64,000 nucleotides of DNA from an uncultured delta proteobacterium (lineage in GTDB: Bacteria > Desulfobacterota > RBG-13-43-22), in the NCBI GenBank assembly GCA_963743305.1, contig CAVUPH010000028.1, positions 22,643 to 86,642 on the forward strand, read 5' to 3'. The translations under genes were made by a program, and so were the position numbers. Numbering within the stretch: the first letter of the stretch is position 1; every line of letters starts with the position of its first letter. The notes under the pieces are model-generated. The model was not told the origin of the DNA. It saw only the letters and a list, made by a program, of their open reading frames with translations, and ran no database searches. Shown in pieces: positions 24,082-49,327 of this stretch.

Positions 24082-24438
24082 TCAGGTAAAAGGAGAGGAC
24101 GGCGGAGGGCCGTCCAGGCTGGTCAAGGTGGTTAATCCGGGAGAGGGTTTTATCGCTTCCACCGGTTTGGGGGCCAGGGAATCCATGGCCCGCTGCTGAA
24201 GCAATTGGGTCTTCGTGGCCCCGACCGTCATGGCCAGGGCCAGGGTTTCCTGGATCTCCTCTTCGGTTGCGCCCAAATCCCTTGCGACCGCAAGGCAGTA
24301 AGCCGTTCAGGGCTCGCAGCCGGCCCCCAGCGAGGCCCCCAGGGCGATCAGGTGCTTCATCTTGCGGTTGATGGCCCCGTCGGCATAGGCGGTCTCAAAA
24401 AATTCCCGGTATTGGTTCAATCCGTCTTCGACCCCCAT
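24082..24438 (-). CDS. AhpD/carboxymuconolactone-decarboxylase-like selenoprotein (CxxU)
   Basis: MGVEDGLNQY...KMKHLIALGASLGAGCEP-U(TGA 24309-24307)-TAYCLAVARDLGATEEEIQETL, in frame across two ORF-track entries; SD AGGAGG; hairpin 24280-24295. Confidence 0.85.
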
Positions 24439-25200
24439 GCCTTTTCCTCCTTCACTTTTGGTTGCCCTAAACAATGTCCCTTTGGTAACCGGCGAACTGT
24501 TAAACCCGGTTTCTCCGGCCGACTCAGCCCCGTTGAACCCCGCTTCCTTCATCAAAGCCAGGAAATCCTTTCCCGGTATGGCCCCGCCCTCTCAGCGGAA
24601 CCAGCTTTCGATTCGTTCCGGAGGACTCTTGGTCAGCGCCCCGCTCAAAATCTGGTCGGCGATCAGTAGCCGGCCGTTCGGTTTCAAGACCCGGCAGGCC
24701 TCTTTCAACATGCGGCCCTTGGCAGGGATCAAATTGAACACCCCGTTGGAAATGACCACGTCGAAGCTCCCGTCGGGGAAGGGCAGGTCTTCTCCGGAAA
24801 ATTCCTGGAAAGCCACGTTGGTCAAGTCCGTCTGTTTCAGGTTTTCATAAGCCCGGACGACCATCTCCGGCGACAAATCCAGACCCACCACCTTGCCTCC
24901 GGCCCCCACCATGCGGGCGGCCACCAGGCTGTCCAACCCACCGCCGCTGCCGATGTCCAGGACCGTTTCCCCCCGGTCCACCGAACCCAGAGAGAAAGGA
25001 TTGCCCACACCGCAGAAAGAATCCAAGACACTTTCCGGCAGTGATTTCAGGATTTCCGGGTCATACCCCAAGGCCTCCAGACCGGCCCTTCCGGTTGGGT
25101 ATTTGAACAACCCCTGGGGGCTGCCGGCCACCTTGGCGTATTTTTCCCGGATACCGGCTTCGATCTTTTGTTTATCCCCCGGGGATAATACAGTTTCCAT
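24439..25200 (-). CDS. ArsM-like SAM-dependent methyltransferase, selenoprotein (reads in frame into the AhpD-like domain as assembled)
   Basis: SFCGVGNPF, VLDIGSGGGLD, FDVVISNGVFNL, then SWFR-U(TGA 24594-24592)-EGGAIPGKDFLALMKEAGF matching the ArsM WxxCxxGA...AGF segment; hairpin 24558-24576. Confidence 0.82.
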
Positions 25201-25307
25201 CGCTCGACCTCTTGATACCTTGATATTCTAACGAAGCACCCACCTTGGTGTAGGGGTGATTTCAGTCGTACTCACCCAAGAATAAATCCGATCGCGTCTC
25301 CTAAATC

Positions 25308-25613
25308 TCAATTTTGAGAGATCTCCTTCCAAGCCTGCTGAACGGCCTCGGTCAGATCGCCCATTTCCGGGATATGGTCAAAAGCGATCTTCTCGTTGAT
25401 CACGATCGAAGGAACAGCCGGTTTGCGGCCGGACAGCCGGGTGAGTTCTTCATGCCGCAGCAGCCCTTCCCGGGCCCCCATATCCACCACTTCCCAGGTT
25501 AATACCCCGGGCTCAAATTCCGGGGCGATTTCTTCCAGGATAGCCAGGGCCAAGTCGCAGAGCAGGCAGCCCTTCTTCTTGGCGATAATCTCCACATATA
25601 CTTTTCGGTCCAT
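25308..25613 (-). CDS. Small thioredoxin-fold protein (CLLC)
   Basis: CxxC plus VPSIVINEKIAFDHIP; start at ATG 25613 after SD AAGGAG. Confidence 0.8.
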   Translation of the reverse strand: MDRKVYVEIIAKKKGCLLCDLALAILEEIAPEFEPGVLTWEVVDMGAREGLLRHEELTRLSGRKPAVPSIVINEKIAFDHIPEMGDLTEAVQQAWKEISQN

Positions 25614-25822
25614 CTCCTTACTCATCCGGTCCGGCATGACGGAGTCAACCCAGGCGCTTATTCAGCATTTACACGCGCCCAAGATACCCGGATATCTCTT
25701 GATAATTGACCCGGCCTCCTACGAATCGCTCCACTTCCGAGCCCTCCCGATGGATGGCTTTCCTTTTCCCCAGGGGCTGCCTTGAGCCTTTCTTCCTTTA
25801 ACCTTTTCCTTCGAACCCTTTA

Positions 25823-26329
25823 TTAATCCAGTAATACCATACTATACCAGGCCGGCAACAGTTTTCCCTCCTTATCAAACGCTATTTTGAAACCCAACGG
25901 CTCGATAGTTTTGCCGATATCCATCCCGTAGGCGTCCATGGACGGCCGGGCCAGGTGCGGAAAATTGCAGGGACTGGGGAAGGCACATTCTTCGCACTGG
26001 ACGCAAAGGACCAGTGCCAGGGCATAACTACAGTTGTAGGAAAGCATGGCCTCTTTTTCCACGGCCAGGGCAACGTTCTGTCCTCCTTTTGGCTCTGTAG
26101 TCTGGATGACCAGGCCCCAACGATAGCGTTCGAAAGCCTCCTTGAACAGATCCTGAGGGATGCTCATATTGGGTGGACAGGTCCAGAACTTCCCCCAGCG
26201 ACTGCAGCCGAACCGACATTTGAGAAAAGAGCGGGGATCGAAAACCACTTGACTGGTTTCCAAAAGCTTCGCTTTGGCTGCTCCCAGTTCAATGGCCTTC
26301 GTTTCTAAGGGTTCAAAATAGGTTCTCAT
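25823..26329 (-). CDS. DUF2284-type predicted metal-binding protein
   Basis: KCRFGCSRWGKFWTCPP...CVQCEEC...CNFPHLARPSMDAYGMD. Confidence 0.82.
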   Translation of the reverse strand: MRTYFEPLETKAIELGAAKAKLLETSQVVFDPRSFLKCRFGCSRWGKFWTCPPNMSIPQDLFKEAFERYRWGLVIQTTEPKGGQNVALAVEKEAMLSYNCSYALALVLCVQCEECAFPSPCNFPHLARPSMDAYGMDIGKTIEPLGFKIAFDKEGKLLPAWYSMVLLD

Positions 26330-26431
26330 GATTTCCTCCGTATTTTCGTACTAACCCCTCAGGCCGTCGGCCTTTGGTCGAGCGCCGACAAGCAGTATCG
26401 GCAAAGATTTCACAATGGACCAGGAGAGAAT

Positions 26432-27274
26432 TTAAAGTCGATCCAGGGGCTTTTCCCCGCAGGTACAGACGATCCGCGGGCGGTCCAGCAGTCGCTGAAA
26501 TACCCCTCGGAAAAGCATGGCCGCGGCCAGTCCGCCCAATAGGGGCCCCAGTATATAGACGGTAATAAAACCGCCGCGAGGTCCCGGAATCGCAACCGAC
26601 CCCCAGCCCGCCAGGTAAGCTACCAGCCGTGGGCCGAAGTCCCGGGCGGGATTCAGACCGGCCTGGGTCAGGGGCGCCAGCAGAGAGATAATCCCCATGA
26701 CGGTCAGGCCGATGAATACAGGTGCGATATCGCTGGAGGGACGGCCGACATTGCAGTCTTCGGTTAAGAAAAAGATGATGGTCACCAGGAGAAAAGTCCC
26801 GAGGGCCTCGATCAGGACGGCCATCGGCTTCGAAACGATCGTAATGGCCGCCGGGGCCGAGGGGTTGGGGAAATATTCCCCGAACAGGGAAGCGCTCCTG
26901 ACCGATTCCGCGGACCCGCGAATGATCCGGTGGAAGGTTTCATACCCGATGATGGAATCCCCGAAAATAAGCAGCAGGACCCACCCGGCAATAAAAGCCC
27001 CGAGAAACTGGGCGGCCAGATAGGCAGGCAGTTTCCTCGGCTCCATGCGTCCGGCAATAACCATAGCTACACTGACCGCGGGATTCAGGTGGGCGCAGGA
27101 AAGGTGCCGGCTGGCGTAAATGGCCAAGGTGACCCCGATGCCCCAAATCCCGGCCACCTGGAATAAGCCGTTGTGAGCGGAGAAAAGGGTGTCCGAGGCC
27201 ACCACCCCGCAGCCGAAAAACACCAGGATAAAGGTGCCCAGCAGTTCGCCGACGAAATTGGTGGTTAAACCCAA
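26432..27274 (-). CDS. MIP family aquaglyceroporin
   Basis: AHLNPAVS and GLNPARDFGPR NPA boxes (D after second NPA = GlpF type); C-terminal CTC. Confidence 0.93.
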   Translation of the reverse strand: MGLTTNFVGELLGTFILVFFGCGVVASDTLFSAHNGLFQVAGIWGIGVTLAIYASRHLSCAHLNPAVSVAMVIAGRMEPRKLPAYLAAQFLGAFIAGWVLLLIFGDSIIGYETFHRIIRGSAESVRSASLFGEYFPNPSAPAAITIVSKPMAVLIEALGTFLLVTIIFFLTEDCNVGRPSSDIAPVFIGLTVMGIISLLAPLTQAGLNPARDFGPRLVAYLAGWGSVAIPGPRGGFITVYILGPLLGGLAAAMLFRGVFQRLLDRPRIVCTCGEKPLDRL

Positions 27275-27343: not shown

Positions 27344-28369
27344 TTAACCGGCCATGGGGTCCCGCTGCGACTCCTCGGTAAAGTCGGGATTGTTCGCGGC
27401 GACGGCGGCCAGTTGGGGCATCACCTCCGGAGGGCCGATAAATACCACCCGGTTGAGCAGGTTGATCCTTTCCGGAGGCAAAGCGGTTTCCTCCAAAGTC
27501 CACCGCCCCATGACCCAACTGAATAAATAGATCCTGATTCCATCTTCACTGATAAACCCCTTGGATCGGACCAGGGTCTTGGGAAAACGGCCGACCAGAG
27601 TCTTGAAGCCTTCCAAATCTCCCCCCTTCCAGGCATAAATGGCTGAGAGCAGACGGTCGGGCGGGGTGATTTCCCGGTTGGGATCGGCCAGCATCCGCTC
27701 AATGGCTGCTTCCAGTTCCCGGGAGGTCAGGTAACGCGCCCGGGTCCCTTCTCCTATCTGGGCCGCCGGATCCAAGCCTTTAAAGAAAAATTCCTGAAAA
27801 GGGAACTCGGCGAAAGTGGTTTCGAAAAATACCGGCGCCGGATGATGACGGGCGACCAAATCCTTCACCTGTTGGACCTGCGCGACGGTGGCCAGATCCA
27901 CTTTGTTGATTATAAAAACCGTCGAAGAAGCAATCTGTTTCTCCACCGATGAAAATACCTCGTATTCCTCTTCAAAATGGGCGGCGTCGATTACACAGAA
28001 CTGCTCGGCCAGGTTGAAACGGTTATTGAAAAAGGGAAGGGTTAAATCCCGTTTCAGGTCCGTGGGGTTGGCCACCCCGGTGGATTCGATCAGCAGTACG
28101 TCCGGCTGAGTATCTTTGGCGATCTTTTGAAGCCCTTTGATGAAATCCGTCTTCACACAAACACAGAAAATGGATCCTTTGCTGATTTCCAGGAGGTCAA
28201 TGTCTTCATCCTGAACCAGTGTACCGTCCACATCCAGTTCGCCGAATTCATTCATCAGGATCATCAGTTTTTTATCCCGGGGAAAATCCTTAATGATCCG
28301 GTTCAGAAAGGTGGTTTTCCCGCTGCCTAAAAACCCGGTGATCAAGAATACGTTAGTTCGGTCGCCCAT
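27344..28369 (-). CDS. CobW/COG0523 metallochaperone GTPase
   Basis: TGFLGSGKTT, NEFGE, GSIFCVC, IESTGVANP, NKVD. Confidence 0.92.
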   Translation of the reverse strand: MGDRTNVFLITGFLGSGKTTFLNRIIKDFPRDKKLMILMNEFGELDVDGTLVQDEDIDLLEISKGSIFCVCVKTDFIKGLQKIAKDTQPDVLLIESTGVANPTDLKRDLTLPFFNNRFNLAEQFCVIDAAHFEEEYEVFSSVEKQIASSTVFIINKVDLATVAQVQQVKDLVARHHPAPVFFETTFAEFPFQEFFFKGLDPAAQIGEGTRARYLTSRELEAAIERMLADPNREITPPDRLLSAIYAWKGGDLEGFKTLVGRFPKTLVRSKGFISEDGIRIYLFSWVMGRWTLEETALPPERINLLNRVVFIGPPEVMPQLAAVAANNPDFTEESQRDPMAG

Positions 28370-28408: not shown

Positions 28409-28663
28409 TTATTGAATAAACCCTTTGGCTCGCAATTTATCCAGAATCTGATCCGGGTTGAGCAGCATGCCGGTGGAAAGAACCTGGCCGTCGCAGACCA
28501 GGCCGGGAGTGGCAAAGACCCCCATTTTCATAAAGTAGTCAATATCCTTCATTTTAACCACTTCGGCCTGGTCCCGTATTCCGGCTTTGTCCAGGGCCTT
28601 GAGGACGTTTTCATAGAGTGTTTCGCAATTTTTACACCCGGGTCCGAGAACTTCAATACGCAT
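28409..28663 (-). CDS. MTH895/ArsE-type small redox-active disulfide protein (CKNC)
   Basis: IEVLGPGCKNC...GVFATPGLVCDG. Confidence 0.88.
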   Translation of the reverse strand: MRIEVLGPGCKNCETLYENVLKALDKAGIRDQAEVVKMKDIDYFMKMGVFATPGLVCDGQVLSTGMLLNPDQILDKLRAKGFIQ

Positions 28664-28679: not shown

Positions 28680-29009
28680 CTAGGGGTCTAGTAAGTTGCC
28701 AGTCAGGGGGATATTGTCATCCTCTTCCATCTGCTCTAAAGGGGTTACCGATCTCTGCTCCTTATCCATAACCAAAAGAACCTCACAGAACTTGCAGACC
28801 ACCAGGTCCCCTTCCCGCCCAAATTGCTCCCAGAGTTTTCGGTAATCCTCCGGACAAGGTTCCAGATCCTCGGGTTTCTCCAGAGAGTTAATCCGATCCG
28901 ATTTGCCGCAGTAGGGACAGCGGATCCCGAAGAGGGCCAAGTCCCGCTTTGGAAGCCCCAGATTCCTGATCAGGTTGCGAAAGTGTTCTATCTGTTCCCA
29001 ATTCGTCAT
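28680..29009 (-). CDS. Small Zn-ribbon-like hypothetical protein
   Basis: CPYCGK...CKFC; start at ATG 29009 after GGAG. Confidence 0.7.
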   Translation of the reverse strand: MTNWEQIEHFRNLIRNLGLPKRDLALFGIRCPYCGKSDRINSLEKPEDLEPCPEDYRKLWEQFGREGDLVVCKFCEVLLVMDKEQRSVTPLEQMEEDDNIPLTGNLLDP

Positions 29010-29035: not shown

Positions 29036-30016
29036 CTAACAGCATTTGTAGAGCCGCAGCAGCCGTTCATTCATCACAAAATAGAATTTCATGAAGGAGG
29101 ATCCGTCCATCCGGGTTCTAACCCCGTGCAGGGTATTGGCCAGGGCAATGGTGCTGCGAAGATGGGTAACCATGATCAAATGCTTTTTGGACGCCAATTC
29201 CTTCAGCAGGGCCTGCATGGATTTATGGTTCAGATAATCCAGGGCGGGTTCCACCTCATCCAGCAGGTAAAAAGGGCTTTGCAGGCGCTCGAACAGGGCC
29301 AATTTCAAGGCCAAACTGGTAATGGCCTTTTCACCCCCGGAAAGTTGATGGCCCCTTCGGACCAGCCTACCCTTGACGGCTACCTCTACCTCCAGGCCCT
29401 TTCCCTTTTTCCCGTTGACGATCAGCAGGTGGCCCTCCCCCTCCGGGAATAAATAGTGGAGGTACCTTTGAAACAAAGGATCGGTTTCACTCATTAGTTC
29501 TTGGGAAAGCGAGTCCGTCGACTTCTTTCCATTAAGGCTCTGGATCCAGCGAAGGCGGTCCGCCGGCAGCAGGGCCAGGAGATCGTTGATCTGCTCCTGT
29601 CGGATGATGGTCTTGATAGTGTCGGCCAATCCCAGTGCCTTGAGTTTCTTCCGGTAGGTTGCCGGGCTGACCGTCTCATCCTGGACCTGCCAGGTTTCTT
29701 GACCATCTCGGGTCACCGTTCGGGCCAGTCGGATTTCCGAAGAATTTTTCTCCGGACTTTCTTTAAAAACCAGTTCCGCCCGAACCCGGGAGGCCGGAGG
29801 GTAGGCCTTATTGCCGGCGAAAAAAAGCTCCTCGCGCTCCAGTAAACGGAGCTTGACCAAGTCATTTTCTCCCAAGGTCCAGACAATTGCATCCAGGATA
29901 TTGGACTTGCCTACCCCGTTGTTCCCGATGATCACCCCGATGCCTGGTTGGAAGCTCATCGCCGTGGGTTCGGAAAAGGACTTGAAGCCTTCAATGGTTA
30001 CGTCTTCCAGATGCAT
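29036..30016 (-). CDS. Mini-SMC: SMC-type ABC ATPase head almost without coiled coil or hinge
   Basis: IEGFKSF, GNNGVGKSNILDAI, IIRQEQI, LSGGEKA, YLLDEVEPALD, MVTH in only 326 aa; ends KCC. Confidence 0.85.
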   Translation of the reverse strand: MHLEDVTIEGFKSFSEPTAMSFQPGIGVIIGNNGVGKSNILDAIVWTLGENDLVKLRLLEREELFFAGNKAYPPASRVRAELVFKESPEKNSSEIRLARTVTRDGQETWQVQDETVSPATYRKKLKALGLADTIKTIIRQEQINDLLALLPADRLRWIQSLNGKKSTDSLSQELMSETDPLFQRYLHYLFPEGEGHLLIVNGKKGKGLEVEVAVKGRLVRRGHQLSGGEKAITSLALKLALFERLQSPFYLLDEVEPALDYLNHKSMQALLKELASKKHLIMVTHLRSTIALANTLHGVRTRMDGSSFMKFYFVMNERLLRLYKCC

Positions 30017-30037: not shown

Positions 30038-30313
30038 TTATTCTTTCAGTCCAAATTCCCTCAGAGCCTTCCAGAGCGTTTCCCTGCTGGGGCTGATTCC
30101 CTCGATTCGTATCAGGCTTTCAATCACTATGGCCGGGACCACCTTCAAACCCAGTTCCGCCATCCGTTCCTTTCCGTCGCCCCCCTTATGCAGAACGCAG
30201 TGCACCCGTTCTCCTAACGAACCCTTCAACTCAGCGCACAACTGCTCCAACTCTTGACAGCCCGGGCAAGGCGGTTCTCCTATAAAAGCCTCCAATTGAA
30301 CCGGTGGGGACAT
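30038..30313 (-). CDS. Small thioredoxin-fold protein (PPCPGC)
   Basis: MSPPVQLEAFIGEPPCPGC...LKVVPAIVI; start at ATG 30313. Confidence 0.78.
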   Translation of the reverse strand: MSPPVQLEAFIGEPPCPGCQELEQLCAELKGSLGERVHCVLHKGGDGKERMAELGLKVVPAIVIESLIRIEGISPSRETLWKALREFGLKE

Positions 30314-30318
30314 GGTTT

Positions 30319-30738
30319 TTACCCTTCCCCGGCGGCTTCCCGCAGCCAAGTTCGAAGCAATTCGGACTCGGGCACGCTGCCATGGTGCTTCAGCTCTCCG
30401 TTGACGATCAGGACCGGAGTCATCCACATGTTCAGATGGTCGGCCTTTTCCTGACAGGGGAGCAGGGCCTGGTCCAGGTCCGGCGACCAGTCCTGTTTCA
30501 ACAGACCCGCCACCCGGCTCCAGTCCACCTCCACAGTGCCCTCTTGGGCCACGTCTTTGGCCGTCCCCAGCCCCCGCTGCCATTGACGGGCCAAAGCCTG
30601 GGCTTCCGACGACCGGCAGTCCATTTTCCGGACCTTCACTTCGATACCGGCCCCCTCCGCTTCCTGGTTAACCCGCTGGACCAGGAGGCTGCAGCGGATA
30701 CAGGGCGGTTCTGTCCCGATAACGATGACCTCAACCAT
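30319..30738 (-). CDS. Thioredoxin-fold protein (PPCIRC) with helical insertion
   Basis: GTEPPCIRC...MTPVLIVNGELKHHGSVP. Confidence 0.8.
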   Translation of the reverse strand: MVEVIVIGTEPPCIRCSLLVQRVNQEAEGAGIEVKVRKMDCRSSEAQALARQWQRGLGTAKDVAQEGTVEVDWSRVAGLLKQDWSPDLDQALLPCQEKADHLNMWMTPVLIVNGELKHHGSVPESELLRTWLREAAGEG

Positions 30739-31021
30739 TTTTCAATCCCCAGCGGCGTCGAATTTCCTCGGCTAGTTCTTCCTGCCCGGGAATTAAGGAT
30801 TCATAAACCAACTGTTCGTCCAGAGCGATGCTGGGCAGGGATTTGGCCTTTAATTCCCGAAACCGGTTCACTCCTTCCCGGGTGCGCATATCCCACTCCC
30901 GGACCTTCATGAGGTCCTGAATTTCCTGCGGTAAAACCTTTACCGCCTCGGCCATATAGACGCAGGCCAGTCACTGGCGGAAATCGGTTAAGAGGACGTC
31001 AACAAGAACTTTTTTTTCCAT
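30731..31021 (-). CDS. Thioredoxin-fold selenoprotein (ULAC)
   Basis: SD AAGGAG, ATG 31021: MEKKVLVDVLLTDFRQ-U(TGA 30973-30971)-LACVYMAEAVK, in frame with the ORF-track entry; hairpin 30928-30946. Confidence 0.88.
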
Positions 31022-31976
31022 GATCTCCTTTCCCGGGCCAGGGAAACGACTGGACCTCAAAGTGAAGGTGGGCCTCCGCAACGGTCAACAAACCCCAGTT
31101 CAGCCGGCCGTCTTCATAAGCCGACCCAACGCTGATAAAATCCACTCCACCCACCTGCCAGTAACCCCATTTCTTTCGTTGGCCGAAAATCACGATCCCG
31201 CTCCTGAACTGAGGGGTCATGGCCTCCAGCGCTGGAAAGACCGATTCGTCCTCCATGAATTGAGTCAGATTGCCCACCAGGTTTATCTCCAAGGCAAAGG
31301 GCTCGTAGTCGGAATAGCCGGGGAGGCCCTGAATGAATCCCCCGTAAAAAGCCATGCCCTTTTTCGTCCCCAGTTGAATAGAGAGGACCTGGGCCATGGA
31401 TTCCAGATAGTCTCGATCTTTGGGGCTAAGCGTTCCCCCCGGGCTGGCCCCCAATTTCCGGGCGTATCGCCAATCCTCCTCTCCCTGGATGGTCATCACT
31501 TTTTTATCTTTTCGCAGGGCCTTTAACAGCGGGCCATTCTCCACCGAAGGCCCCGTTTGGTTTCCCAGGCAATAGACCGCTTCCACTTTCTTTTTTTTGA
31601 GTTCGGCCCTCAGGGTTTCCCAGATTTCGAGCCGACCGGCCAAATTTCCCACCAGGGCCACCCGTTTTCTTTCCCACAGGTCGGCCGCTAGACGAAACGA
31701 TTGGGCCGGGAGCAGGGTCCCATCCAAGGCTGCCCCCAGGGCCCGATCCAATTGATCGGGGCAGGAGGTCTGGTTCTGGCAGTGAATATCCTTCAGCCAG
31801 GGTCGGATCTCCGCGACCGCTCGATCTTTGATTAATCGGCTGACCAACTGGGCATTGCCAGGACAGCCTCCGCCGCGGAAATCCACTTCGGTCAGAATCC
31901 CTTCTTTGATTTGGAAATGTATTTCCGGAGGACAAATACCCTGGGTCCGGAAAATATACCTGCCGGCTTCAATCAT
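30999..31976 (-). CDS. TIGR03905/TSCPD-like Cys domain fused to a degenerate metallophosphoesterase-like domain
   Basis: TQGICPPEI...GGGCPGN...CQNQTSCPDQL, then VALVGNLAG...VYCLGNQ...IQGEED. Confidence 0.7.
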   Translation of the reverse strand: MIEAGRYIFRTQGICPPEIHFQIKEGILTEVDFRGGGCPGNAQLVSRLIKDRAVAEIRPWLKDIHCQNQTSCPDQLDRALGAALDGTLLPAQSFRLAADLWERKRVALVGNLAGRLEIWETLRAELKKKKVEAVYCLGNQTGPSVENGPLLKALRKDKKVMTIQGEEDWRYARKLGASPGGTLSPKDRDYLESMAQVLSIQLGTKKGMAFYGGFIQGLPGYSDYEPFALEINLVGNLTQFMEDESVFPALEAMTPQFRSGIVIFGQRKKWGYWQVGGVDFISVGSAYEDGRLNWGLLTVAEAHLHFEVQSFPWPGKGDHGKKSSC

Positions 31977-31977: not shown

Positions 31978-32292
31978 TTAGCCCGCTACGATCCTTTGAA
32001 TTTTTTCTCTCAATTCCGTCGGATCCAAAACCCTCCCCACCCCAACCTTTTCACCGTTGATCATTGTGGTGGGGGTCATGGTTATCCCTGATTTTCGGGC
32101 CTTTTCCGACCAGGCATCCACTTTTTCAACTGCGATCAGCCCATCGGGAAAATCGGCGGCTACTTCCCGGGCGTTCCTTTCGGCCAGGAGACAACGACTG
32201 CAGGGAGGTTGGGTGCCGAAGATCAGAATGTCGACTTTCCCCCGTTGTTTTTCTGCTTTTAGTTTAATCCCCATTTTCAGCCAGAAGCCCAT
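31978..32292 (-). CDS. Small thioredoxin-fold protein (PPCSRC)
   Basis: IFGTQPPCSRC...GITMTPTTMING; exact start uncertain. Confidence 0.8.
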   Translation of the reverse strand: MGFWLKMGIKLKAEKQRGKVDILIFGTQPPCSRCLLAERNAREVAADFPDGLIAVEKVDAWSEKARKSGITMTPTTMINGEKVGVGRVLDPTELREKIQRIVAG

Positions 32293-32560
32293 CTAGATAA
32301 TCCTTCAACTCGGCCTGCCTGGGTGTCGTTTCAAAAACCAACTGATCATTGATATATATGGATGGAACGGGAGCAGGCCGGCCCAGCTTTTTGCTTAACT
32401 CAATAAAACGGAGTGCCCCTTTTTTTTCTTTCGTGACCACCTTTTCCCAAATCAGGGTTTCCGGATAATCCGGCGTAATGGACTCGACCACCCGGGTCAT
32501 ATAGACGCAGGGGATTCAGTGCTCCCCTTCGTGCAGGACTTCCAGATGGATTTGTTTCAT
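32264..32560 (-). CDS. Thioredoxin-fold selenoprotein (UIPC)
   Basis: ATG 32560: MKQIHLEVLHEGEH-U(TGA 32518-32516)-IPCVYMTRVVES, in frame with the ORF-track entry; hairpin 32486-32498. Confidence 0.88.
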
Positions 32561-33540: not shown

Positions 33541-33580
33541 CCCGGGACCCAATCATATGCCTTTAACTACCGATCTTGGC

Positions 33581-34156: not shown

Positions 34157-34175
34157 AATGAAAAACCGTAATTAT

Positions 34176-34332
34176 TGATGGACTCGCAAAAAGTCCATCA
34201 GCAACCCGAGCGCGATTAAGCGTCGGGTTGGGGTGAGGGTGGAACCATTTGAATTCACTTCAAATGGCGGGGGAGGGGAAACCCTTCCCCGCCGAGCAGA
34301 AAGTCGTCTTTTGACTTTTTGCGAGGTTATCA
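34176..34332. mobile_element. MITE-like element
   Basis: Terminal inverted repeats TGATGGACTCGCAAAAAGTC / GACTTTTTGCGAGGTTATCA (13-bp perfect core), internal GC hairpin 34266-34293, TTAT on both flanks. Confidence 0.7.
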
Positions 34333-34355
34333 TTATTGATTATTCGCTTTTATGA

Positions 34356-34977: not shown

Positions 34978-35931
34978 CTAACCCCGGCAGGCCTTTAGAC
35001 AGTCCAAAATCTCTTCTTCATTAATCTTCCACCCCACGAAGGCCAGCGTGGTCGGCCCCTTGGTGTCCAGGGCCAGCCATTCGGTCTTTTTACCGACATG
35101 ATTGATAAAAAACCGGTGACCGTCCAGCAACACATATCCCTTGATCCGGTACAGCCCGGCCGGCACGGACTTGATGAAATCCTTGAAGCAACTTTCGCGC
35201 AAAGGTTTTTCTTCCTCGAAAGCGAAGGCCACGTACCCCAGTTCTTCCGCGTTTCCTGGTTGATCCCGCTTGAACGGGGTGGTCAGTGATATTTCCCCTT
35301 TTCTGATCATGGTGGGCAGCGGTTGCCAGAAGATCTGGGGTTCAATCATACAATGCTCAGTGGGGACAACGGTGCAATAGGGGTTGAATTCCTTGACTTC
35401 CACCAAATAGCGGGAGATGTTTTCCCGGGGCAGGAGATCAACCTTATTAAAAAGCAGCAGGTCGGCGCCTTTGATCTGGTTATAGAACAAGGGGCCGAAA
35501 TATTCCCGGCCCTCCCACAGATCACCGTCCAGGACCGTCACCACCTTGGGAATTTTGACGCGCGGCTCGATAACCGGCCCGCGCAGGAAGAGCAAGATCT
35601 CCAACGGATCAGCCACCCCGGTGGCCTCGATAAACAGGTGGAGAGGATTGAACTTCAACAGGATCTCTTCCACCGTTTTAACCATATCGCCGGCCATGGT
35701 GCAACAGATACAGCCGTTGGTCAATTCATACACCGGGGTTTGGAAGCCTTGCAACAACTCTCCGTCAATCCCCACCCGCCCGAACTCATTGACCAGAACG
35801 GCCGTCCGAGAAAGGTTTCCGGGCCACTGCAAAATACGACGGAGCAGGGTGGTCTTTCCGGCCCCTAAAAATCCGGCGAGGAGGATAAGGTCGCACAAGG
35901 ATTCAGGAGGAGCTTCTTGGGGGGATTTCAT
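34978..35931 (-). CDS. CobW/COG0523 metallochaperone GTPase
   Basis: AGFLGAGKTT, VNEFG, NGCICC, IEATGVADP, NKVD, RIKGY. Confidence 0.93.
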   Translation of the reverse strand: MKSPQEAPPESLCDLILLAGFLGAGKTTLLRRILQWPGNLSRTAVLVNEFGRVGIDGELLQGFQTPVYELTNGCICCTMAGDMVKTVEEILLKFNPLHLFIEATGVADPLEILLFLRGPVIEPRVKIPKVVTVLDGDLWEGREYFGPLFYNQIKGADLLLFNKVDLLPRENISRYLVEVKEFNPYCTVVPTEHCMIEPQIFWQPLPTMIRKGEISLTTPFKRDQPGNAEELGYVAFAFEEEKPLRESCFKDFIKSVPAGLYRIKGYVLLDGHRFFINHVGKKTEWLALDTKGPTTLAFVGWKINEEEILDCLKACRG

Positions 35932-36800: not shown

Positions 36801-38861
36801 TTACTTCTGGTGCAGCACTTCCGCCGGCACGATCCCTTCCAGATGCGGGAAGGCGTCCTTCATATGCGGAATTTGCATGGATTCCATGAACTGGACCTGG
36901 AAATCCTTTTCCACGGTCAGTTCGATGTATTCTACGTTGCGGGAGACCCAGTTGGCTTCCACCCGTTTCTCCCGGTTCAACAGGGCCGCCCGGGCGCCGT
37001 CACCGGCCGCGTTGCCCACCGAAAGGATCTTTTCGATAGGGCAGTCCGGGAAGAGACCCATGATCAGGGCCTTGGTCCGGTCCACGTGGGTCCCGAAGGC
37101 CCCGGCGATCTTGACCACATCCACTTTGTCGATGTTCATTTTCCGCATCATCAGCTTACAGCCCGTGTACAGGGCCCCTTTGGCCAACTGGATCTGACGA
37201 ACGTCCTTCTGGGTGACGACCACGTCCTTCTCGATGCTGGTCTCATTGGCCCAGGCGATAACGAATTCCGGCTGTTTGGTGTCGGCGTTCAGACGGTACC
37301 GATTGGATTTCTGCGTCTTGTTGAACACCCCACTCTTCACAATGACCCCCGAGGTATACAGTTCGGCCAGCACATCCAGAATCCCCGATCCACAGATTCC
37401 CTTGGTCTTCATCTCTTCGGGCTTGGAAAAGCTCAACCAGGCATCGCGGCCGATGACCTTGTAATCCACCGCGTGGGTCTCCGGATCGATCTTGATCCGT
37501 TCGATGGCCCCGGGGGCGGCCCGCATGCCGAAGGCCAATTGGGCACCTTCCAGGGCCGGGCCGGTGGCGCAGGAGGAGGAGATGAGTTTTTCCTTGTTCC
37601 CCAAGACCAGCTCGCCGTTGGTCCCGATGTCGATGAGCAATTGGACTTCATCGCTCTTATAAGGCGCCTCGGCGATGAGCACGCCCACGTTGTCCGCCCC
37701 CACAAAACCGGCCTCATTGGGCAGGACATGGACATAGGCCGAATCATTGATCTTGATCTTCAGGTCCCGGGCCTTGATATCCAGGCTCCGGTGGATGACC
37801 GGAGGAAAAGGGGCCAGGCCCACAAATTCCGGGTCCAGCTTAAGTAGGATGTGATGCATGGCCGTGTTGCAGACGATGGTCATGTCCACGATATCCTTCG
37901 GTTCCAGGCGCAGGTAGGTCTTGCCTTCCTCGGGCACCTCTTCCCAGGTCTCAACAACCTGATCGCCTTCTTTGACCTTCTTTTTCTTTTTGGGTGGATA
38001 AGTGGACTCCACGGCCTGCTTGACCAGGGTGTTCAGGCCCTCGATCATGTCGTTGCTCATCCGCTCCAGGCCGTCTTCGTTCATCATATGGTAGGTAATC
38101 CGGCTCATCACGTCTTCCCCGTATTTGCATTGGGGATTCATCATGGAAACCGTTTCGATGACCTCCATGGTCTTCAGGTTACAGAAATAGGCGGCCACGG
38201 TGGTGGTGCCGATATCCACGGCCAGCCCGTAATTGGCCCCCTCTCTTTTGCCGGGCAGAACCCGGATAATTTCTTTGTCCATCCAGATCGAGACGGTCAT
38301 GGCCCAACGTCGTTTATCCCGCAAACGGGCCGGCATTTTCATCAGGGCCCAGTAGTCAATGGTCAGATCCTTGATGCCGAACTGACGGTTCAACTCATCC
38401 TGAAGCCGCTCGAAATCCCCGGTGGGGTGCTCAAAGGTGGGCTCAATGACTTCCACGTAATATTCCTTAACCGCCGGGTTCCAGTCGATGGGAATATCCC
38501 GGGCGGCCTTGCTGACGATCTGCTTTCCGGCCCGCGATTCCTCGGGTACAAAAATCAACAGGTCCCCTTCGATCTTGGCACAACACCCCAACCGGTATCC
38601 CAGTTCGCGCTGTTCCTCGTTGACGAACTTCTCCTCTTCTTCCATCCAGGGGCTGACGTTGTTGCGGCTGGACTGGATTCCGTATTTTTCATAAAAGCCT
38701 TCCTCAATCCGCACCTTGCATTTGCCGCAAACTTTTTTCTCTCCGCAAAGGGCTTCGATATCCACGCCTACCCGGCGGGAGGCTTCAATGATGGTCATCC
38801 CTTTGGCCACTTCGCCTCGCCGGCCGGAAGGCTGAAAAATGATCTTCGCATTTTCACTCAT
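36801..38861 (-). CDS. RACo/RamA-type ATP-dependent reductive activator of corrinoid protein (2Fe-2S + ASKHA, DUF4445)
   Basis: CGEKKVCGKC...RLGC, AVDIGTTT, YGEDVMSRI, IDIGTNGE, CATGPALEG, GICGSG, GNAAGDGA. Confidence 0.93.
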   Translation of the reverse strand: MSENAKIIFQPSGRRGEVAKGMTIIEASRRVGVDIEALCGEKKVCGKCKVRIEEGFYEKYGIQSSRNNVSPWMEEEEKFVNEEQRELGYRLGCCAKIEGDLLIFVPEESRAGKQIVSKAARDIPIDWNPAVKEYYVEVIEPTFEHPTGDFERLQDELNRQFGIKDLTIDYWALMKMPARLRDKRRWAMTVSIWMDKEIIRVLPGKREGANYGLAVDIGTTTVAAYFCNLKTMEVIETVSMMNPQCKYGEDVMSRITYHMMNEDGLERMSNDMIEGLNTLVKQAVESTYPPKKKKKVKEGDQVVETWEEVPEEGKTYLRLEPKDIVDMTIVCNTAMHHILLKLDPEFVGLAPFPPVIHRSLDIKARDLKIKINDSAYVHVLPNEAGFVGADNVGVLIAEAPYKSDEVQLLIDIGTNGELVLGNKEKLISSSCATGPALEGAQLAFGMRAAPGAIERIKIDPETHAVDYKVIGRDAWLSFSKPEEMKTKGICGSGILDVLAELYTSGVIVKSGVFNKTQKSNRYRLNADTKQPEFVIAWANETSIEKDVVVTQKDVRQIQLAKGALYTGCKLMMRKMNIDKVDVVKIAGAFGTHVDRTKALIMGLFPDCPIEKILSVGNAAGDGARAALLNREKRVEANWVSRNVEYIELTVEKDFQVQFMESMQIPHMKDAFPHLEGIVPAEVLHQK

Positions 38862-39033
38862 GCCGCTGACTCCTTTTTATTGACAGTATTTGCATAACGT
38901 TGTTTGGGTTCGGCCGGTTCGGGACGCACACCTGACCATCGGAATGGGGGGTGATAAAATTGTAGCTGATTGCCGGCCAACGATCCCCCCGAGGTGCCGG
39001 GGGGATCGTTCCAGCCGCACCCAACAAACGGGG

Positions 39034-39702
39034 CTATTGTTTTTTCTGCATTTCCCGCAAACGGGCGATCATCTTGATCCCCTCGGCCACGGCATTCCCG
39101 GCTGATTCCGCGTAGCCGTCGGCGCCGAAGAGGTTGGCCACGTCTTTGGTCACCGGAGCGCCGCCGAGCATGATGGCCACATTGGGGTTTTTATCCTTGA
39201 TCATCTTGATGACCTTTTTCATGCCCAACATCGTAGTGGTCATCATGGCCGACATGGCTACGACTTCCGAGTCGGTCCGCATCTGCTCTTCCACGAACTT
39301 TTCGAGCGGCACGTCGCGGCCCAGATCATGGACATCCCAACCGGCCACGTCAAACATCATTTTGACCAGGTTTTTGCCGATGTCATGCACATCACCCTGG
39401 ATGCTGCCGATGACTACCTGGGCGTTCACACCGCCTTCTTTCTTGGGCACGTGGGGGCGCAGGATAGCCAACCCGGCATACAGGGCATCGGCGCACATCA
39501 GGACCTCCGGCACGAAATACTCGTTCCGCTCGTACAACTGCCCGACGACTTCCATTCCGGCGGCCAGACCGTCCATGATCATTTCCAGTGGGGTATAACC
39601 GGCATCAAGGGACTCCTGGGCGGCTTCCTTTACCTGGTCCTCTTTATAGTTGATGACCCCGTCCTTCAAGAGTTCCAATATTTCTTCTTTCGATTTAGCC
39701 AT
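39034..39702 (-). CDS. Methyltransferase cognate corrinoid protein (MtaC/MttC-like)
   Basis: EYFVPEVL, GDVHDIGKNLV B12 motif, DLGRDVP, SAMMTTT, LGGAP. Confidence 0.95.
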   Translation of the reverse strand: MAKSKEEILELLKDGVINYKEDQVKEAAQESLDAGYTPLEMIMDGLAAGMEVVGQLYERNEYFVPEVLMCADALYAGLAILRPHVPKKEGGVNAQVVIGSIQGDVHDIGKNLVKMMFDVAGWDVHDLGRDVPLEKFVEEQMRTDSEVVAMSAMMTTTMLGMKKVIKMIKDKNPNVAIMLGGAPVTKDVANLFGADGYAESAGNAVAEGIKMIARLREMQKKQ

Positions 39703-39764
39703 AACACGTTCCTCCTAAAAAATATTTTTTGTCCTAAAGGGATAGGCTTTGATTTGTCAAATCT

Positions 39765-40889
39765 CTAAATCAATGATTTTTCAGGGCCAACCTTGGGTCG
39801 GCTCGATCCGCCATCTATTCTTCCCACGGCCGGCGTGGGACCCGTCTTGTAGGTCCGGGCGGTCTGTTCGATAGCCCGCATGTTTTCTTCCTTGATGTCC
39901 GGCCAGAGATCGCAGCCCGGCCAGACGGCGTCCACCAGACCGTCGATATTGGTTTTGATCCCTGCAATCGCCATCTCCACCGTAGTCTCCTCGGCGCAAG
40001 GCAGCTTAAAGACGTCAAAGTTGCCGACAATCAGGGCTTCGTTGCCCAGCTTTTTCCGGGACTCCAGAAGATTGTTTTTGATATCCACGCTGACTGCCTG
40101 GGCCCCGGAGTCCTTGACGATCTCCCACATCATCTCGATCAACGGATCGGTCGATCCGCAGATATGCAGCACCTTGGGCGCGTTCCAGGCCTTTAGAATC
40201 CGAGTCAACCGGGGTTTGATCATTTCCCGGAAGGTCTTGGGGCTCAACAGGTCGGCGGCTACCCCGGGTTCCCTCAGGGTGATGTAATCCGCCCCGGCGG
40301 CCAGCAGGGCCTTCCCGTTGTTGGCGATCATCTCGGTAAACTGGTCGAGGATAGCTTCTACTTTGGCCTTTTCTTTGAAGACCCCCTTAAGGACCTTATC
40401 CAGTTCGATGGTCTGGCCGCATTGGGTAAAGGGGCCCAACTGCCAGGCGCCGAGGGCCAGTTCCGGGGCCTCTTTTTTCACGATCTTTATGGCTTCGGGG
40501 ATGAGATTCATGGGGTAGCGATCCATAAGGTGATCGATATCGTTCCGGGTAATCTTGACGTCATCCATCGTCACCCACTTTTTGGTGGGGATCGTGGGAT
40601 AAAGGGTATCCTCGGAATCCGCATACAGGCTGATCTCGTTCCCCAAGGCTTCTGATTCCCAGCACATATCATAGGGAATAACGACGGAATCCAATTTGAA
40701 CATGCGGGCCGACTCGATGCCCGACCAGGCCAACTTCTCGGCATCGCGATGAACGGACGGAAATTTTATTCCCAGTTTCTTGATGGCCGGGCGAAGCACC
40801 ATGCCCATGCCGGTGAAGAAAGGCATCACATCCACCGGTTCTCTTTTAAAAAACTTCATGACACGATCATAAGGGGTTAGTTGCGCCAT
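39765..40889 (-). CDS. MtaA/CmuA (URO-D fold) corrinoid methyltransferase
   Basis: DMCWESEALG, GPFT, Zn ligands LHICG and WPGCD. Confidence 0.88.
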   Translation of the reverse strand: MAQLTPYDRVMKFFKREPVDVMPFFTGMGMVLRPAIKKLGIKFPSVHRDAEKLAWSGIESARMFKLDSVVIPYDMCWESEALGNEISLYADSEDTLYPTIPTKKWVTMDDVKITRNDIDHLMDRYPMNLIPEAIKIVKKEAPELALGAWQLGPFTQCGQTIELDKVLKGVFKEKAKVEAILDQFTEMIANNGKALLAAGADYITLREPGVAADLLSPKTFREMIKPRLTRILKAWNAPKVLHICGSTDPLIEMMWEIVKDSGAQAVSVDIKNNLLESRKKLGNEALIVGNFDVFKLPCAEETTVEMAIAGIKTNIDGLVDAVWPGCDLWPDIKEENMRAIEQTARTYKTGPTPAVGRIDGGSSRPKVGPEKSLI

Positions 40890-40923
40890 TCGTATCTTCT
40901 CCTTTCCAAAAGCTTAAGTTAAT

Positions 40924-42885
40924 TTAGACGCTCAGAGTCACCACCCGGTAGCAGCGCAGGCAGCGTTCCGCCTCGGCAACCGCCGCTGCGGGGGAATAAC
41001 CCTGTTCCACTTCCATGAAATTCCGGTTCCGTTCCTCCGGGAGCAGCTTCGTCAGCGGGATCCGCTCCTGTTTTTCGGGTACTCGGACCTCCTCCTGCGG
41101 ATCATAGACCCGAATGGTCTTAAAAAGGCTGTCAAAAAGATCATCCTGATCCGGCTCCAACGGCAGACCATTGATCAGGCGGTCAATACTCTCTGCGGCC
41201 TTTTTTCCGTTGGCCGCCGCCTCGATAACCGATCGGGGTCCGTTGACCGCGTCCCCCCCGGCAAAGATGTTCGGATCATCGGTCTGCAGGGTATACGGGT
41301 TTACCTTGACCGTTCCCCAGTCGGAGAGGGTGCATTGGCAATCGGGCCCCAGGCAGGCCCAGTCGGATTCCTGTCCCAAGGCCGGGATTACCCCATCGAC
41401 TTCCAGGATAAATTCCGACCCGGCCACCGGGACCGGACGTCTGCGGCCGGAGGCATCCGGTTCACCCAGGGTCATCTGCAGACATTCCACCGCCGTTACT
41501 TTCCCCTGCACCCCGATGAGGCGTTGGGGGTTCACCAGGGTCTGGAGCTCAATGCCCTCCGCCAGACAGTCGGCGATCTCTTCAGCGTGGGCCGGCATCT
41601 CCTCCCGGCCTCGGCGGTATAGGATCAAGACCTTTTCGACCCCTAGACGTTTGGCCGTTCGGACGGCATCGATGGCCACGTTGCCGCCGCCAATCACAGC
41701 CACCCGCTTTCCCAGCTTGATCGATTTACCCAGTTTGACATCCCGCAGGAAATCCACCCCGGGATACACCCCCTCGAGGTCTTCTCCTTCAATGCCCAAC
41801 GTCTTGCATTCCTGGGCCCCGATGGAAAGAAAGAAGGCCTGGAAGCCTTCTTCCCGGAGTCGTCCGATGGTGTTTTCGGAGCCAATACTCATCCCCGACC
41901 GGAGTTCCACTCCCAGGTCGATAATGGATTTAATCTCCCCTTCGCGTACCAGGGACGGCAAACGATAGTCCGGGATGCCCAGAGCCAGCATGCCGCCGTT
42001 TAAGGTCTGTTTTTCAATAATGGTGACCCGATGCCCCTTCAAGGCCAGATGGTAGGCACAGGTCAGACCCGCCGGACCGGCCCCGATAACCGCTACTTTC
42101 CCGGTGTTGGCCGAAGGCCTAACCTGAACTTCCGGCCATTGGTTTTTGGCCGCCGCCTGGTCGGCGGCAAACCGTTTCAGAGACCGGATGGCAATGGGTT
42201 GATCCGCATTGGCCCGCCGGCAGTTTTCCTCGCAGGGGTGATAGCAAACCCGTCCCACGATGCCCGGCAGGGGCAATCGTTCCCGGATCACGGCCAGGGA
42301 ATCGTCAAATTTGGCATTTTTTATCGCTTCCACGTACTTGGGTACATCCAGATGGATCGGGCAGGCATCCATGCAGGGAGCGTTAACCTTGGACAAATAG
42401 CTGCCGGACGGGCCGCCTGATCCCCCCTGGTTTTTCTTCTTCAATTCGTCCAGAAAATAGCGGGCCAGATGCAGGGCCGGGTTCGGGCCCATCTTGCCGA
42501 TGTTGCATTTCGAGGATTCGATGACGGCCTTCCCGGAATTTTCAAAAAATTCGAGGTCCTCGTCGGTAGCCTCCCCGTGGTAAACATCTTTCAGGACATC
42601 GAGCATCTCAGCATAACCGGTTGTACAATAATTGCATTTGTTGCAAGCGCTGGAAACCTTATGTACCTCCTCGAGGTAGGCCTTGACCAAGTCAACGACA
42701 TCCACCTCCGGGTCGCGGATCAGGATGCCGTCCCATCCGGCCAGTGCTCTGATTCTTTGGCCGGGTCTAAAGAATTCGGGCAGTTCGGCCTTTTCCACGG
42801 CTTCAAAAGACGCGGCCTCCCGACCACGATTGTCTACCACCTGTCCCCCCCAGGAACTGAATATGATATCCCTCATAACCTCCAT
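40924..42885 (-). CDS. FeS-flavoprotein, GltD/NfnB-like NAD(P)H oxidoreductase with NuoF-like N-terminal 4Fe-4S domain
   Basis: SACNKCNYC...SKCNIG, APCMDACP, GRVCYHPCEENC, GAGPAG, GGGNVAID, YRR, FAGGD, EAERCLRC. Confidence 0.88.
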   Translation of the reverse strand: MEVMRDIIFSSWGGQVVDNRGREAASFEAVEKAELPEFFRPGQRIRALAGWDGILIRDPEVDVVDLVKAYLEEVHKVSSACNKCNYCTTGYAEMLDVLKDVYHGEATDEDLEFFENSGKAVIESSKCNIGKMGPNPALHLARYFLDELKKKNQGGSGGPSGSYLSKVNAPCMDACPIHLDVPKYVEAIKNAKFDDSLAVIRERLPLPGIVGRVCYHPCEENCRRANADQPIAIRSLKRFAADQAAAKNQWPEVQVRPSANTGKVAVIGAGPAGLTCAYHLALKGHRVTIIEKQTLNGGMLALGIPDYRLPSLVREGEIKSIIDLGVELRSGMSIGSENTIGRLREEGFQAFFLSIGAQECKTLGIEGEDLEGVYPGVDFLRDVKLGKSIKLGKRVAVIGGGNVAIDAVRTAKRLGVEKVLILYRRGREEMPAHAEEIADCLAEGIELQTLVNPQRLIGVQGKVTAVECLQMTLGEPDASGRRRPVPVAGSEFILEVDGVIPALGQESDWACLGPDCQCTLSDWGTVKVNPYTLQTDDPNIFAGGDAVNGPRSVIEAAANGKKAAESIDRLINGLPLEPDQDDLFDSLFKTIRVYDPQEEVRVPEKQERIPLTKLLPEERNRNFMEVEQGYSPAAAVAEAERCLRCYRVVTLSV

Positions 42886-42959
42886 TCACTCCCGACTTTC
42901 GTTTCCTGCGGCTTTTATTTATGACTGGGCTTGTTGAAATAAATCGCCTTGGATGTAAC

Positions 42960-43949: not shown

Positions 43950-44027
43950 AAAACCCCCTTTTAATAAAAAGATCTAGGGGGGGGACGGCCCCCTGAGCGC
44001 CTATCCCCCCATCCCAGCTAAACGATT

Positions 44028-44417
44028 TCAATCCACCCGGGTATGTTGCCCCGACCCGGCCTTGGCCAGGTTTTCCTGGATCTTGTCGAACTCAAAGCCC
44101 ACTTCCCGCAAGGCCATGATGCGATCGGCCATAGCGGGGTTAGGCGCCCGCTTGGCCATCTCGTCGATCAATTCTTCGTACTGCGGGATGATGCTTTCAA
44201 AAACCAGATCACCCATGATGCAGATCGTGGGCAGAACCCGGCCTTTGAGCTCCAGAAACTTGCCGATCCCGGTCTTTGTTTTAATGGACCATTCGGAGTA
44301 TTCAATCATTTCCTGGACGTCCTTGGGCAATGCGGCGATGGATTCCATCATATACCCACAGGCGGCGCACTGCACACTGTCCAGGGTCAACACATCGATT
44401 TGAATTTTATCTGCCAT
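44028..44417 (-). CDS. Thioredoxin-fold protein (CAAC)
   Basis: SD AAGGAGG; MADKIQIDVLTLDSVQCAACGYMMES...LPTICIMGDLVFESIIP. Confidence 0.85.
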   Translation of the reverse strand: MADKIQIDVLTLDSVQCAACGYMMESIAALPKDVQEMIEYSEWSIKTKTGIGKFLELKGRVLPTICIMGDLVFESIIPQYEELIDEMAKRAPNPAMADRIMALREVGFEFDKIQENLAKAGSGQHTRVD

Positions 44418-44440
44418 TTTCGCCTCCTTCGGCCCTATCC

Positions 44441-49288: not shown

Positions 49289-49327
49289 TTATTGGATAAC
49301 CTCGCCAAGGGACCTTTGGCTAGTCCG

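Follow-up and report, generated by a model that had tools for sequence, protein, structure and literature searches.

The 64,000-nucleotide stretch of contig CAVUPH010000028.1 (assembly GCA_963743305.1; uncultured delta proteobacterium, Desulfobacterota, RBG-13-43-22), hereafter the window, was analysed around one reverse-strand gene (29036-30016) that encodes an ATPase of 326 amino acids (aa). Judged by its sequence, the ATPase is a true head of the structural maintenance of chromosomes (SMC) lineage that has lost its arms and hinge, and searches confirmed that it represents a natural, conserved family of stand-alone SMC heads. The gene lies in a three-gene core of fixed order, formed by a TSCPD protein, a small open reading frame (ORF) and the ATPase, and in this family the small ORF directly upstream of the ATPase reads as a missed selenoprotein with a U-x-x-C thioredoxin fold (U, selenocysteine or Sec).

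The SMC head ATPase and its family

Profile scans showed a Pfam SMC_N match of 1.5e-45 and NCBIfam scores of 198.8 bits over two stretches for SMC_prok_B (TIGR02168; cut-off 567.35) and 138.1 bits for TIGR02169 (cut-off 729.4). These SMC scores were higher than those of the Rad50, RecF and RecN models, which reached at most 47 bits each, RecF TIGR00611 giving 44.4 bits and falling below its cut-off of 172. The first-pass annotation had placed all SMC head motifs inside 326 aa, and both the motif reading (GFKSF, Walker A GNNGVGKSN, Q-loop RQEQ, LSGGEK, LLDEVEPALD and VTH) and an alignment of 47 homologues bore this out. Residues K37, Q140, S226-G228, D253, E254, D260 and H285 were invariant among the 47 sequences, and so was the SMC arginine R57. 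The ATPase contained the full ABC-type set of Walker A, Walker B, Q-loop, signature motif, D-loop and H-loop, and at the sequence level it was shown to keep all the residues that ATP-sandwich head dimerisation and hydrolysis would require.

Alignment with the 1187-aa SMC of the same genome demonstrated 30% identity, with residues 6-163 of the ATPase corresponding to SMC residues 5-168 and residues ~170-307 to SMC residues ~1040-1180. Because the ATPase aligned to the two SMC ends only, about 850 residues of arm and hinge are gone, in agreement with the earlier claim that a short linker replaces the coiled coils and hinge. The coiled-coil (neck) remnants were short stubs, and the Pfam scan produced no SMC_hinge match in the ATPase. 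A family profile built from the 47 members aligned unbroken over residues 1-304 with PDB 1e69 (E 7.7e-61), an engineered head-only construct of the T. maritima SMC (322 aa), and the next PDB matches were further bacterial SMC heads. Smc-ScpAB was the closest family by every sequence score and shares with the ATPase an ABC-type head with all motifs, but it has the arms and hinge that the ATPase lacks. The ATPase also scores far under the SMC cut-off (198.8 against 567 bits) and carries an additional C-terminal helix ending in Cys-Cys that canonical SMC proteins lack.

The Cys-Cys end, also noted in the first-pass annotation, was found as ...LYKCC followed by the stop codon TAG. All 19 aligned homologues ended in ...LL(R/K)LY(K/R)CC, and the CC end occurred in 73 of the 77 complete ORFs from genome loci (YKCC in 72, YRCC in 1), the four exceptions being KCCC, CSC with a short extension, SCFC and one frameshifted sequence. 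Among metagenome loci, 76 of 79 ended in YKCC. The stop codons of the gene over the 77 loci were TGA (42), TAA (22) and TAG (13); with this mixture, and with TAG in the window, Sec read-through of the ATPase stop was rejected. One carrier genome had a single in-frame TGA within the ATPase match (G187:C23:7479-8456). The most divergent relative (L085, 8500-10000; 47% identity) had the tail SCFC and no selenoprotein or TSCPD gene upstream; in their place lay an ORF rich in Cys that, as judged by eye, contains a TGA in frame (..TN-U-SC..) and Cys patterns like those of BFD.

A search among proteins of 179-571 aa produced 781 matches to the ATPase, and the top 120 matches listed showed identities of 60-100% and lengths of 297-425 aa. 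When 1.84 billion representatives, grouped at 50% identity, were searched exhaustively with a profile, only three short clusters of full length (329, 323 and 316 aa; 562, 459 and 344 bits) and four fragments scored above the canonical SMC proteins, which were ~1180 aa long and reached 239 bits or less. No dedicated Pfam or NCBIfam model for the family was matched in the library scans. With one genome per species, 144 stretches coded for an ATPase relative, of which 79 were retained as loci for neighbourhood work. The carriers were mostly metagenome-assembled genomes (MAGs) of Desulfobacterota, and some were Bacillota MAGs. Among isolates, Desulfatitalea alkaliphila and Desulfotomaculum copahuensis carry the gene. 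The spread was patchy: the ATPase occurred in 5 of 21 genomes of the window organism's class and in 21 of 301 genomes sampled from the class to which most carriers belong.

A non-working gene, be it the remnant of a decaying smc or an artefact of assembly, would be suggested by the unusual length alone and has hardly any probability. Against it stand the hundreds of homologues of the same length with invariant catalytic residues, the identity of only 30% to the intact smc of the same genome, and the synteny kept over 79 genome loci and 80 metagenome loci. Two checks proposed in the first-pass annotation came out in favour of a genuine family, since the search for homologues of ~330 aa found hundreds, so that neither a private deletion nor an assembly collapse applies, and a full-length smc was confirmed on another contig of the same genome (1029.5 bits to TIGR02168). 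The decayed fragment and the artefact were ruled out on the same-length homologues, the intact smc elsewhere, the invariant catalytic residues and the short clusters that the profile search set apart from canonical SMC proteins.

The putative selenoprotein partner and the TSCPD protein

The small ORF upstream of the ATPase was reported by ORF finders only as a 74-aa ORF (30731-30955). Reading TGA as U upstream of this ORF gave MEKKVLVDVLLTDFRQ-U-LAC-VYMAEAVK..., which completes a thioredoxin fold with a U-x-x-C motif. In 73 of 74 genome loci the in-frame TGA lay in the strongly conserved context VDVLLTDFxQ-U-xAC, the one other locus being cut at a contig edge, and U stood at the same site in 64 of the 69 metagenome loci with enough upstream sequence; Cys in place of U was found in none of these loci. 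By tblastn the small ORF was detected in 76 of 79 loci, and by eye also in L009, beside a masked stretch. Ordinary gene callers thus truncate what appears to be an obligate selenoprotein partner of the ATPase.

Against NF047660, the family of HUIPC-motif thioredoxin-like selenoproteins, the partner scored 47.7 bits, and because this lies under the cut-off of 105 it is set apart, on sequence grounds, as a separate, related family with the motif Q-U-x-A-C. A paralogue of the partner within the window scored 143.5 bits against NF047660, above the cut-off; it represents a second missed selenoprotein and appears to ORF finders as a 78-aa ORF. HUIPC, U-x-x-U, ArsM/AhpD and CobW-related selenoprotein families are among those listed in the available text of a 2026 review (PMC13188914).

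The window organism's genome contained both selB and tRNA-Sec. selA (TIGR00474) was not found in this 90%-complete genome, although selB, tRNA-Sec and several selenoprotein genes occur in it. A hairpin 3' of the UGA is conserved and SECIS-like, but covariation was seen in only 1 of 10 pairs. An Rfam scan at gathering thresholds over window positions 20000-52000 produced zero matches.

The third core gene encodes a protein with a four-Cys TSCPD domain followed by a calcineurin-like phosphoesterase fold. It was present in 61 of the 70 loci with at least 1500 nucleotides upstream. In the TSCPD domain, C38, C66 and C72 were invariant and C15 was kept in at least 90% of members. The C-terminal 230 residues resembled small calcineurin-like phosphoesterases, with PDB matches to 3qfm (4e-5), 1nnw and Vps29, and Metallophos_2 was matched in 8 of 32 members. 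The metal-binding motifs DxH, GDxxD and GNHD/E of phosphoesterases were replaced, and because of this loss the protein looks more like a scaffold than an enzyme.

Gene neighbourhood and other features of the window

Neighbourhoods were compared by tblastn of the window neighbours against the 79 loci and by clustering of ORFs within 6 kb. Among the 35 loci with full flanks (at least 8 kb on either side), the selenoprotein was present in 34, the TSCPD protein in 32, a CobW GTPase in 32, a corrinoid methyltransferase part in 29 and a V4R protein in 21. CobW and the corrinoid methyltransferase part were counted when the gene lay within 10 kb, the latter meaning at least one of an MtrH-like protein, a URO-D/MtaA-like protein, a B12-binding protein and RACo. 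The metabolic operon proposed as the setting of the ATPase in the window was accordingly recognised as a corrinoid methyltransferase island, and this metabolic context was kept across two phyla. CobS, CobU, MeaB and CobO were found near the ATPase in L028 and in the window, and DUF1638 occurred in 22 of 79 loci, frequently directly 5' of the TSCPD gene.

Cys-rich proteins were common neighbours. The small CxxC...CxxC protein that the first-pass annotation had noted downstream is a real Zn-ribbon protein, whose four Cys are kept without exception in 20 of 20 homologues, but as a family feature it is restricted to 19 of 79 loci. A CxxCxxCC-domain protein was present in 25 of 79 loci, being the next gene 3' of the ATPase in 19 of them, and one or the other protein was found within the flanks of 44 of 79 loci. 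Arsenic handling as a family trait did not hold up, and arsenic was rejected as the theme of the family: MIP aquaporins were found in 7 and ArsM-like genes in 3 of the 79 loci. DUF2284 was likewise rare (13 of 79).

DNA or defence roles were weighed against these neighbourhoods. Near the ATPase, no nuclease, Toprim, kleisin or ScpA/ScpB genes occurred among the 25 largest neighbour clusters, in contrast to Smc-ScpAB with its kleisin partners and chromosomal context. The four neighbours tested on PADLOC matched no named defence system, the sole match being a weak one of CobW to the candidate model PDC-M16A (E 3.4e-4). The earlier expectation that a family of this kind should not associate with defence nucleases therefore agreed with what was found. 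The statement that scpAB, a nuclease and mre11 were missing nearby was literally right, yet it passed over a conserved neighbour with a degenerate calcineurin-like phosphoesterase fold. Nor could the small ORFs upstream be recognised in that annotation as selenoproteins.

On the other side, the closest sequence relatives of the ATPase are DNA-acting SMC heads, the SMC arginine R57 is invariant, the phosphoesterase-fold neighbour is reminiscent of Mre11, and PADLOC mad3 matched the ATPase at 132.6 bits (E 6e-39). MAD3 of the MADS system, PtuA and GajA are, like the present ATPase, short head-type ATPases without long arms. MADS, however, pairs MAD3 with the Toprim nuclease MAD4, whereas the ATPase has no nuclease partner and no defence context among the neighbours compared, and it is nearer to true SMC proteins than to mad3. 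Rad50-Mre11/SbcCD likewise joins an SMC-like ATPase to a calcineurin-like phosphoesterase fold, but Rad50 has a Zn-hook coiled coil that the ATPase lacks, the Rad50 models scored low, and the fold at the present locus is of the small YfcE/Vps29/PF1291 type without its metal-binding motifs, unlike the active Mre11. With SMC scores exceeding those of mad3, Rad50, RecF and RecN, with the catalytic motifs of the phosphoesterase fold lost and with a conserved metabolic context, DNA or defence roles are unlikely, and a minimal SMC/Rad50/RecF-type or defence-type (MAD3, PtuA or Gabija-like) ATPase, or a DNA clamp regulating the operon, would be very improbable.

According to the available text of PMC10907483, the methanol methyltransferase operon of Desulfofundulus kuznetsovii TPOSR, a strain without an MtaB gene, carries an 'insert'. 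Besides short hypothetical ORFs, this insert encodes an aquaporin, a TSCPD protein, a GTP-binding protein and an AAA family ATPase, an arrangement that fits the Bacillota loci L074, L076 and L080 by gene order and description alone. Its several short hypothetical ORFs may be explained by gene callers cutting the selenoprotein short. In the literature text available, this 'AAA family ATPase', matched by gene order only, was the one possible mention of the ATPase family. No MtaB was found in the genome of the window organism.

The features of the window are shown in Table 1.

Table 1. Features in and around the ATPase module of the window, all on the reverse strand
Feature	Position	Strand	Details
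ArsM/AhpD double selenoprotein	24084-25200	(-)	NF041537 599 bits, cut-off 510; Sec sites U-x-x-G at 24592-24594 and C-x-x-U at 24307-24309
Arsenic-flavoured genes, local to the window	24084..27274	(-)	ArsM/AhpD selenoprotein, glutaredoxin-like, DUF2284, MIP channel
MIP channel	26432-27274	(-)	
CobW/COG0523-type G3E GTPase	27344..28369	(-)	Pfam/NCBIfam
MTH895/ArsE-family thioredoxin-like protein	28409..28663	(-)	CKNC; TIGR00412 74.6 bits, cut-off 62
Zn-ribbon protein (CPYCGK...CKFC)	28680..29009	(-)	109 aa; likely start MTNWEQ
Arm-less SMC head ATPase (main finding)	29036..30016	(-)	326 aa; Cys-Cys-COOH end
Thioredoxin-like protein, CPGC motif	30038..30313	(-)	91 aa
Thioredoxin-like protein, CIRC motif	30319..30738	(-)	Between selenoprotein and ATPase in the window lineage
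Putative thioredoxin-fold selenoprotein, Q-U-L-A-C	30731..31021	(-)	96 aa; Sec TGA at 30971-30973
TSCPD four-Cys domain and calcineurin-like phosphoesterase fold	30999..31976	(-)	Degenerate motifs; Pfam/NCBIfam and alignment
HUIPC-motif thioredoxin-like selenoprotein	32264..32560	(-)	Sec codon 32516-32518; paralogue of the partner
Two DGC-domain proteins and GcvH-related protein	33581-34928 and 33088-33552	(-)	GcvH-related protein NF045810-like, below cut-off
Second CobW-type GTPase	34978..35931	(-)	
Corrinoid methyltransferase set	36801..45475	(-)	RACo activase, B12-binding protein, two URO-D/MtaA-like methyltransferases, MtrH-like methyltransferase, flavin/FeS oxidoreductase
Head of the same-strand run	45816-50518	(-)	PAS histidine kinase, LuxR-type response regulator, V4R protein, CobO adenosyltransferase

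The CIRC thioredoxin-like protein was found in 1 of 79 loci by tblastn. The two DGC-domain proteins and the GcvH-related protein belong to the same gene run and were not conserved with the module (DGC 0 of 79 loci, GcvH-like 4 of 79), while the regulator and V4R set at the head of the run recurred beside the module at other loci. Reading TGA as U also joined the ArsM-like methyltransferase ORF with its AhpD/CMD-like part. Elsewhere in the genome, away from the window, HgcA was encoded on another contig (C17:99097-100086; 455 bits, cut-off 275), on account of which the window organism is a putative mercury methylator.

Proposed function of the module

The reading that we favour, tentatively and at a little short of an even chance, is that the module passes a soft metal or metalloid between thiolate/selenolate sites in an ATP-gated hand-off and so serves the corrinoid methyltransferase island. 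It draws on the terminal dithiol, the selenol/thiol partner, the Cys-rich partners, CobW, the corrinoid setting and a CopZ/MerP-type fusion in some relatives. The ATPase, which probably passes on metal rather than handling DNA, would act as the ATP-powered component of a small, soluble module. Its Cys-Cys tail, together with a U-x-x-U domain where one is fused, may hold a soft metal or metalloid ion and exchange it with the selenoprotein and the Cys-rich partners, and the ATP-dependent engagement and release of two heads could gate this hand-off, as in other soluble ABC-type ATPases. Candidate cargoes would be Zn or Co, as a cofactor metal for the methyltransferases, or species of Hg, As or Se acting as thiophilic acceptors or donors of methyl groups.

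In the Fe-S assembly complex SufBCD, the soluble ABC-type ATPase SufC dimerises on ATP and thereby remodels Cys-bearing partners in metallocentre handling. It differs from the present ATPase in ABC subfamily and in partners, so that the analogy is functional only. A second model, for the way in which the head may use its partners, is offered by MAD3, a short SMC/Rad50-like head that is inactive alone and hydrolyses ATP once it has joined its partner in a 2:2 complex (PMC13662399, available text); by analogy, such a partner-switched ATPase is a plausible model.

Nearly all HgcB and SaoC proteins end in Cys-Cys-COOH according to the available text of Haft and Gwadz (bioRxiv 10.1101/2022.07.06.499078), who argue that CC/CU motifs mark the handling of heavy metals or organometallics. 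The HgcAB/SAO setting described there, with Cys-Cys-COOH tails (HgcB, SaoC), the thioredoxin-like selenoprotein SaoT, CU/CC motifs and a corrinoid protein, is like that of the present module, whereas the ATPase is an SMC head and shows no homology in sequence to either HgcB or SaoC. It does have the terminal CC that defines this group (HgcB, SaoC, DUF466), which is a motif class and not a homologous family. A link between HgcA and the ATPase was rejected as the enrichment was weak (HgcA in 34 of 50 ATPase-carrying genomes against 145 of 301 in the class sample).

The fused relatives were recognised among the 120 listed clusters, six of which were 394-396 aa long. Before TGA read-through, their N-terminal extension produced zero Pfam and zero PDB matches. 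When DNA for relatives of one of the six was read with TGA as U, a domain of ~70 residues stood in frame N-terminal to the ATPase in four metagenome contigs (L091, L092, L108 and L125), with the pattern beta strand, x-U-x-x-U-P and helix, and U-x-x-U in 4 of 4. With U read as C, this domain matched NF041115 (a U-x-x-U metal-binding selenoprotein family), CopZ, MerP, MerTP and the N-terminus of MerA at E 8.5e-9 to 2.6e-5. This CopZ/MerP-like fusion, the U-x-x-C neighbour and the CobW gene in 32 of 35 full-flank loci lend circumstantial support to the first-pass proposal of an SMC head repurposed as a soluble ATPase for metals or metalloids, though not to its arsenic part.

Several observations weigh against a metal hand-off, among them the failure to find selA in the 90%-complete genome and the weak covariation of the hairpin 3' of the UGA. 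All family matches of the fused domain fell under the curated cut-offs (NF041115 24-35 bits, cut-off 95; Pfam HMA in 3 of 3, E 1.5e-4 to 3.6e-3, 18-22.5 bits against 24.8). The fused form was a minority, found in 4 of 72 metagenome loci, in a search that was seeded with the fused form, and in 0 of 76 genome loci. HgcA was only weakly enriched, occurring in 16 of 21 carriers against 129 of 280 others, related genomes not being independent. The available text on the TPOSR insert reports it as nearly undetected on methanol or lactate (one protein in the proteomes) and leaves its function open (PMC10907483). Finally, the Cys-Cys and U-x-x-C motifs suit a pure thiol/selenol redox relay equally well.

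In such a relay, reducing equivalents would pass from the thioredoxin-like proteins to the U-x-x-C selenoprotein and the TSCPD Cys domain and on to the Cys-Cys tail, with ATP gating access and no metal cargo, a possibility to which we give a low probability. C-terminal Cys pairs relay reducing equivalents in ribonucleotide reductases, and the TSCPD domain is otherwise known from the C-termini of B12-dependent ribonucleotide reductases (Pfam description). Numerous thioredoxin-fold genes stand in the cluster, and in P0006, a metagenomic sequence of 425 aa and 90% identity, the CPGC thioredoxin-like protein and the ATPase form one continuous reading frame; there the stop codon of the CPGC gene is changed to Tyr, in a single sequence on one contig. 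The domain fused in the other relatives, however, appears to be of the CopZ/MerP metal-binding type and not a thioredoxin fold, and the commonest other neighbours are CobW GTPases and Zn-ribbon or CxxCxxCC proteins. We also know of no disulfide relay that needs an ABC-type ATPase, which counts against this explanation.

That the ATPase matures or maintains the corrinoid methyltransferases, without thiolate-metal hand-off, appears rather unlikely. It would then act beside RACo, DUF1638 and CobW as an ATP-driven chaperone, opening or assembling either the methyltransferase or the corrinoid protein so that cobamide loading or repair can take place. The corrinoid methyltransferase parts (29 of 35) and CobW in the full-flank loci would fit such a role, as would DUF1638 near the TSCPD gene and the CobS, CobU, MeaB and CobO genes near the ATPase. 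DUF1638 and RamA-like proteins are genetically tied to B12 reactivation in the available text of PMC5764234, which also favours it. This role leaves the Cys-Cys-COOH tail, the obligate selenoprotein neighbour and the U-x-x-U HMA-type fusion unexplained, and RACo in the same clusters already provides ATP-dependent reductive activation.

The soft-metal hand-off can be extended to a more specific role, which we hold to be doubtful. As the front end of a corrinoid methyltransferase pathway that acts on methylated soft metals or metalloids, the module would handle the substrates: for example, methylmercury, methylarsenite or methylselenide might be captured on selenolate/thiolate ligands and presented to Co(I) or, in the alternative direction, the methyl group might be taken from CH3-Co(III). 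In the related Desulfofundulus operons, as far as the available text goes, the module occupies the place of the methanol-specific MtaB (PMC10907483). If true, this front-end role would provide a genetic basis for the 'oxidative' demethylation that sulfate reducers carry out anaerobically on methyl-metal(loid)s or, alternatively, a second, HgcAB-independent route of metal methylation. The findings may thus bear on methyl-metal(loid) turnover, for which, to our knowledge, no genes have been assigned in sulfate reducers.

Arms and a hinge are the defining features of SMC proteins. An arm-less member of the true SMC lineage that works away from DNA would show that the head is a reusable ATP-driven clamp, an idea already implied by the head-only constructs of crystallographers. 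Together with Sec- and Cys-rich carriers, CobW and corrinoid methyltransferases, the module would offer a testable entry to soft-metal traffic around B12 enzymes in anaerobes.

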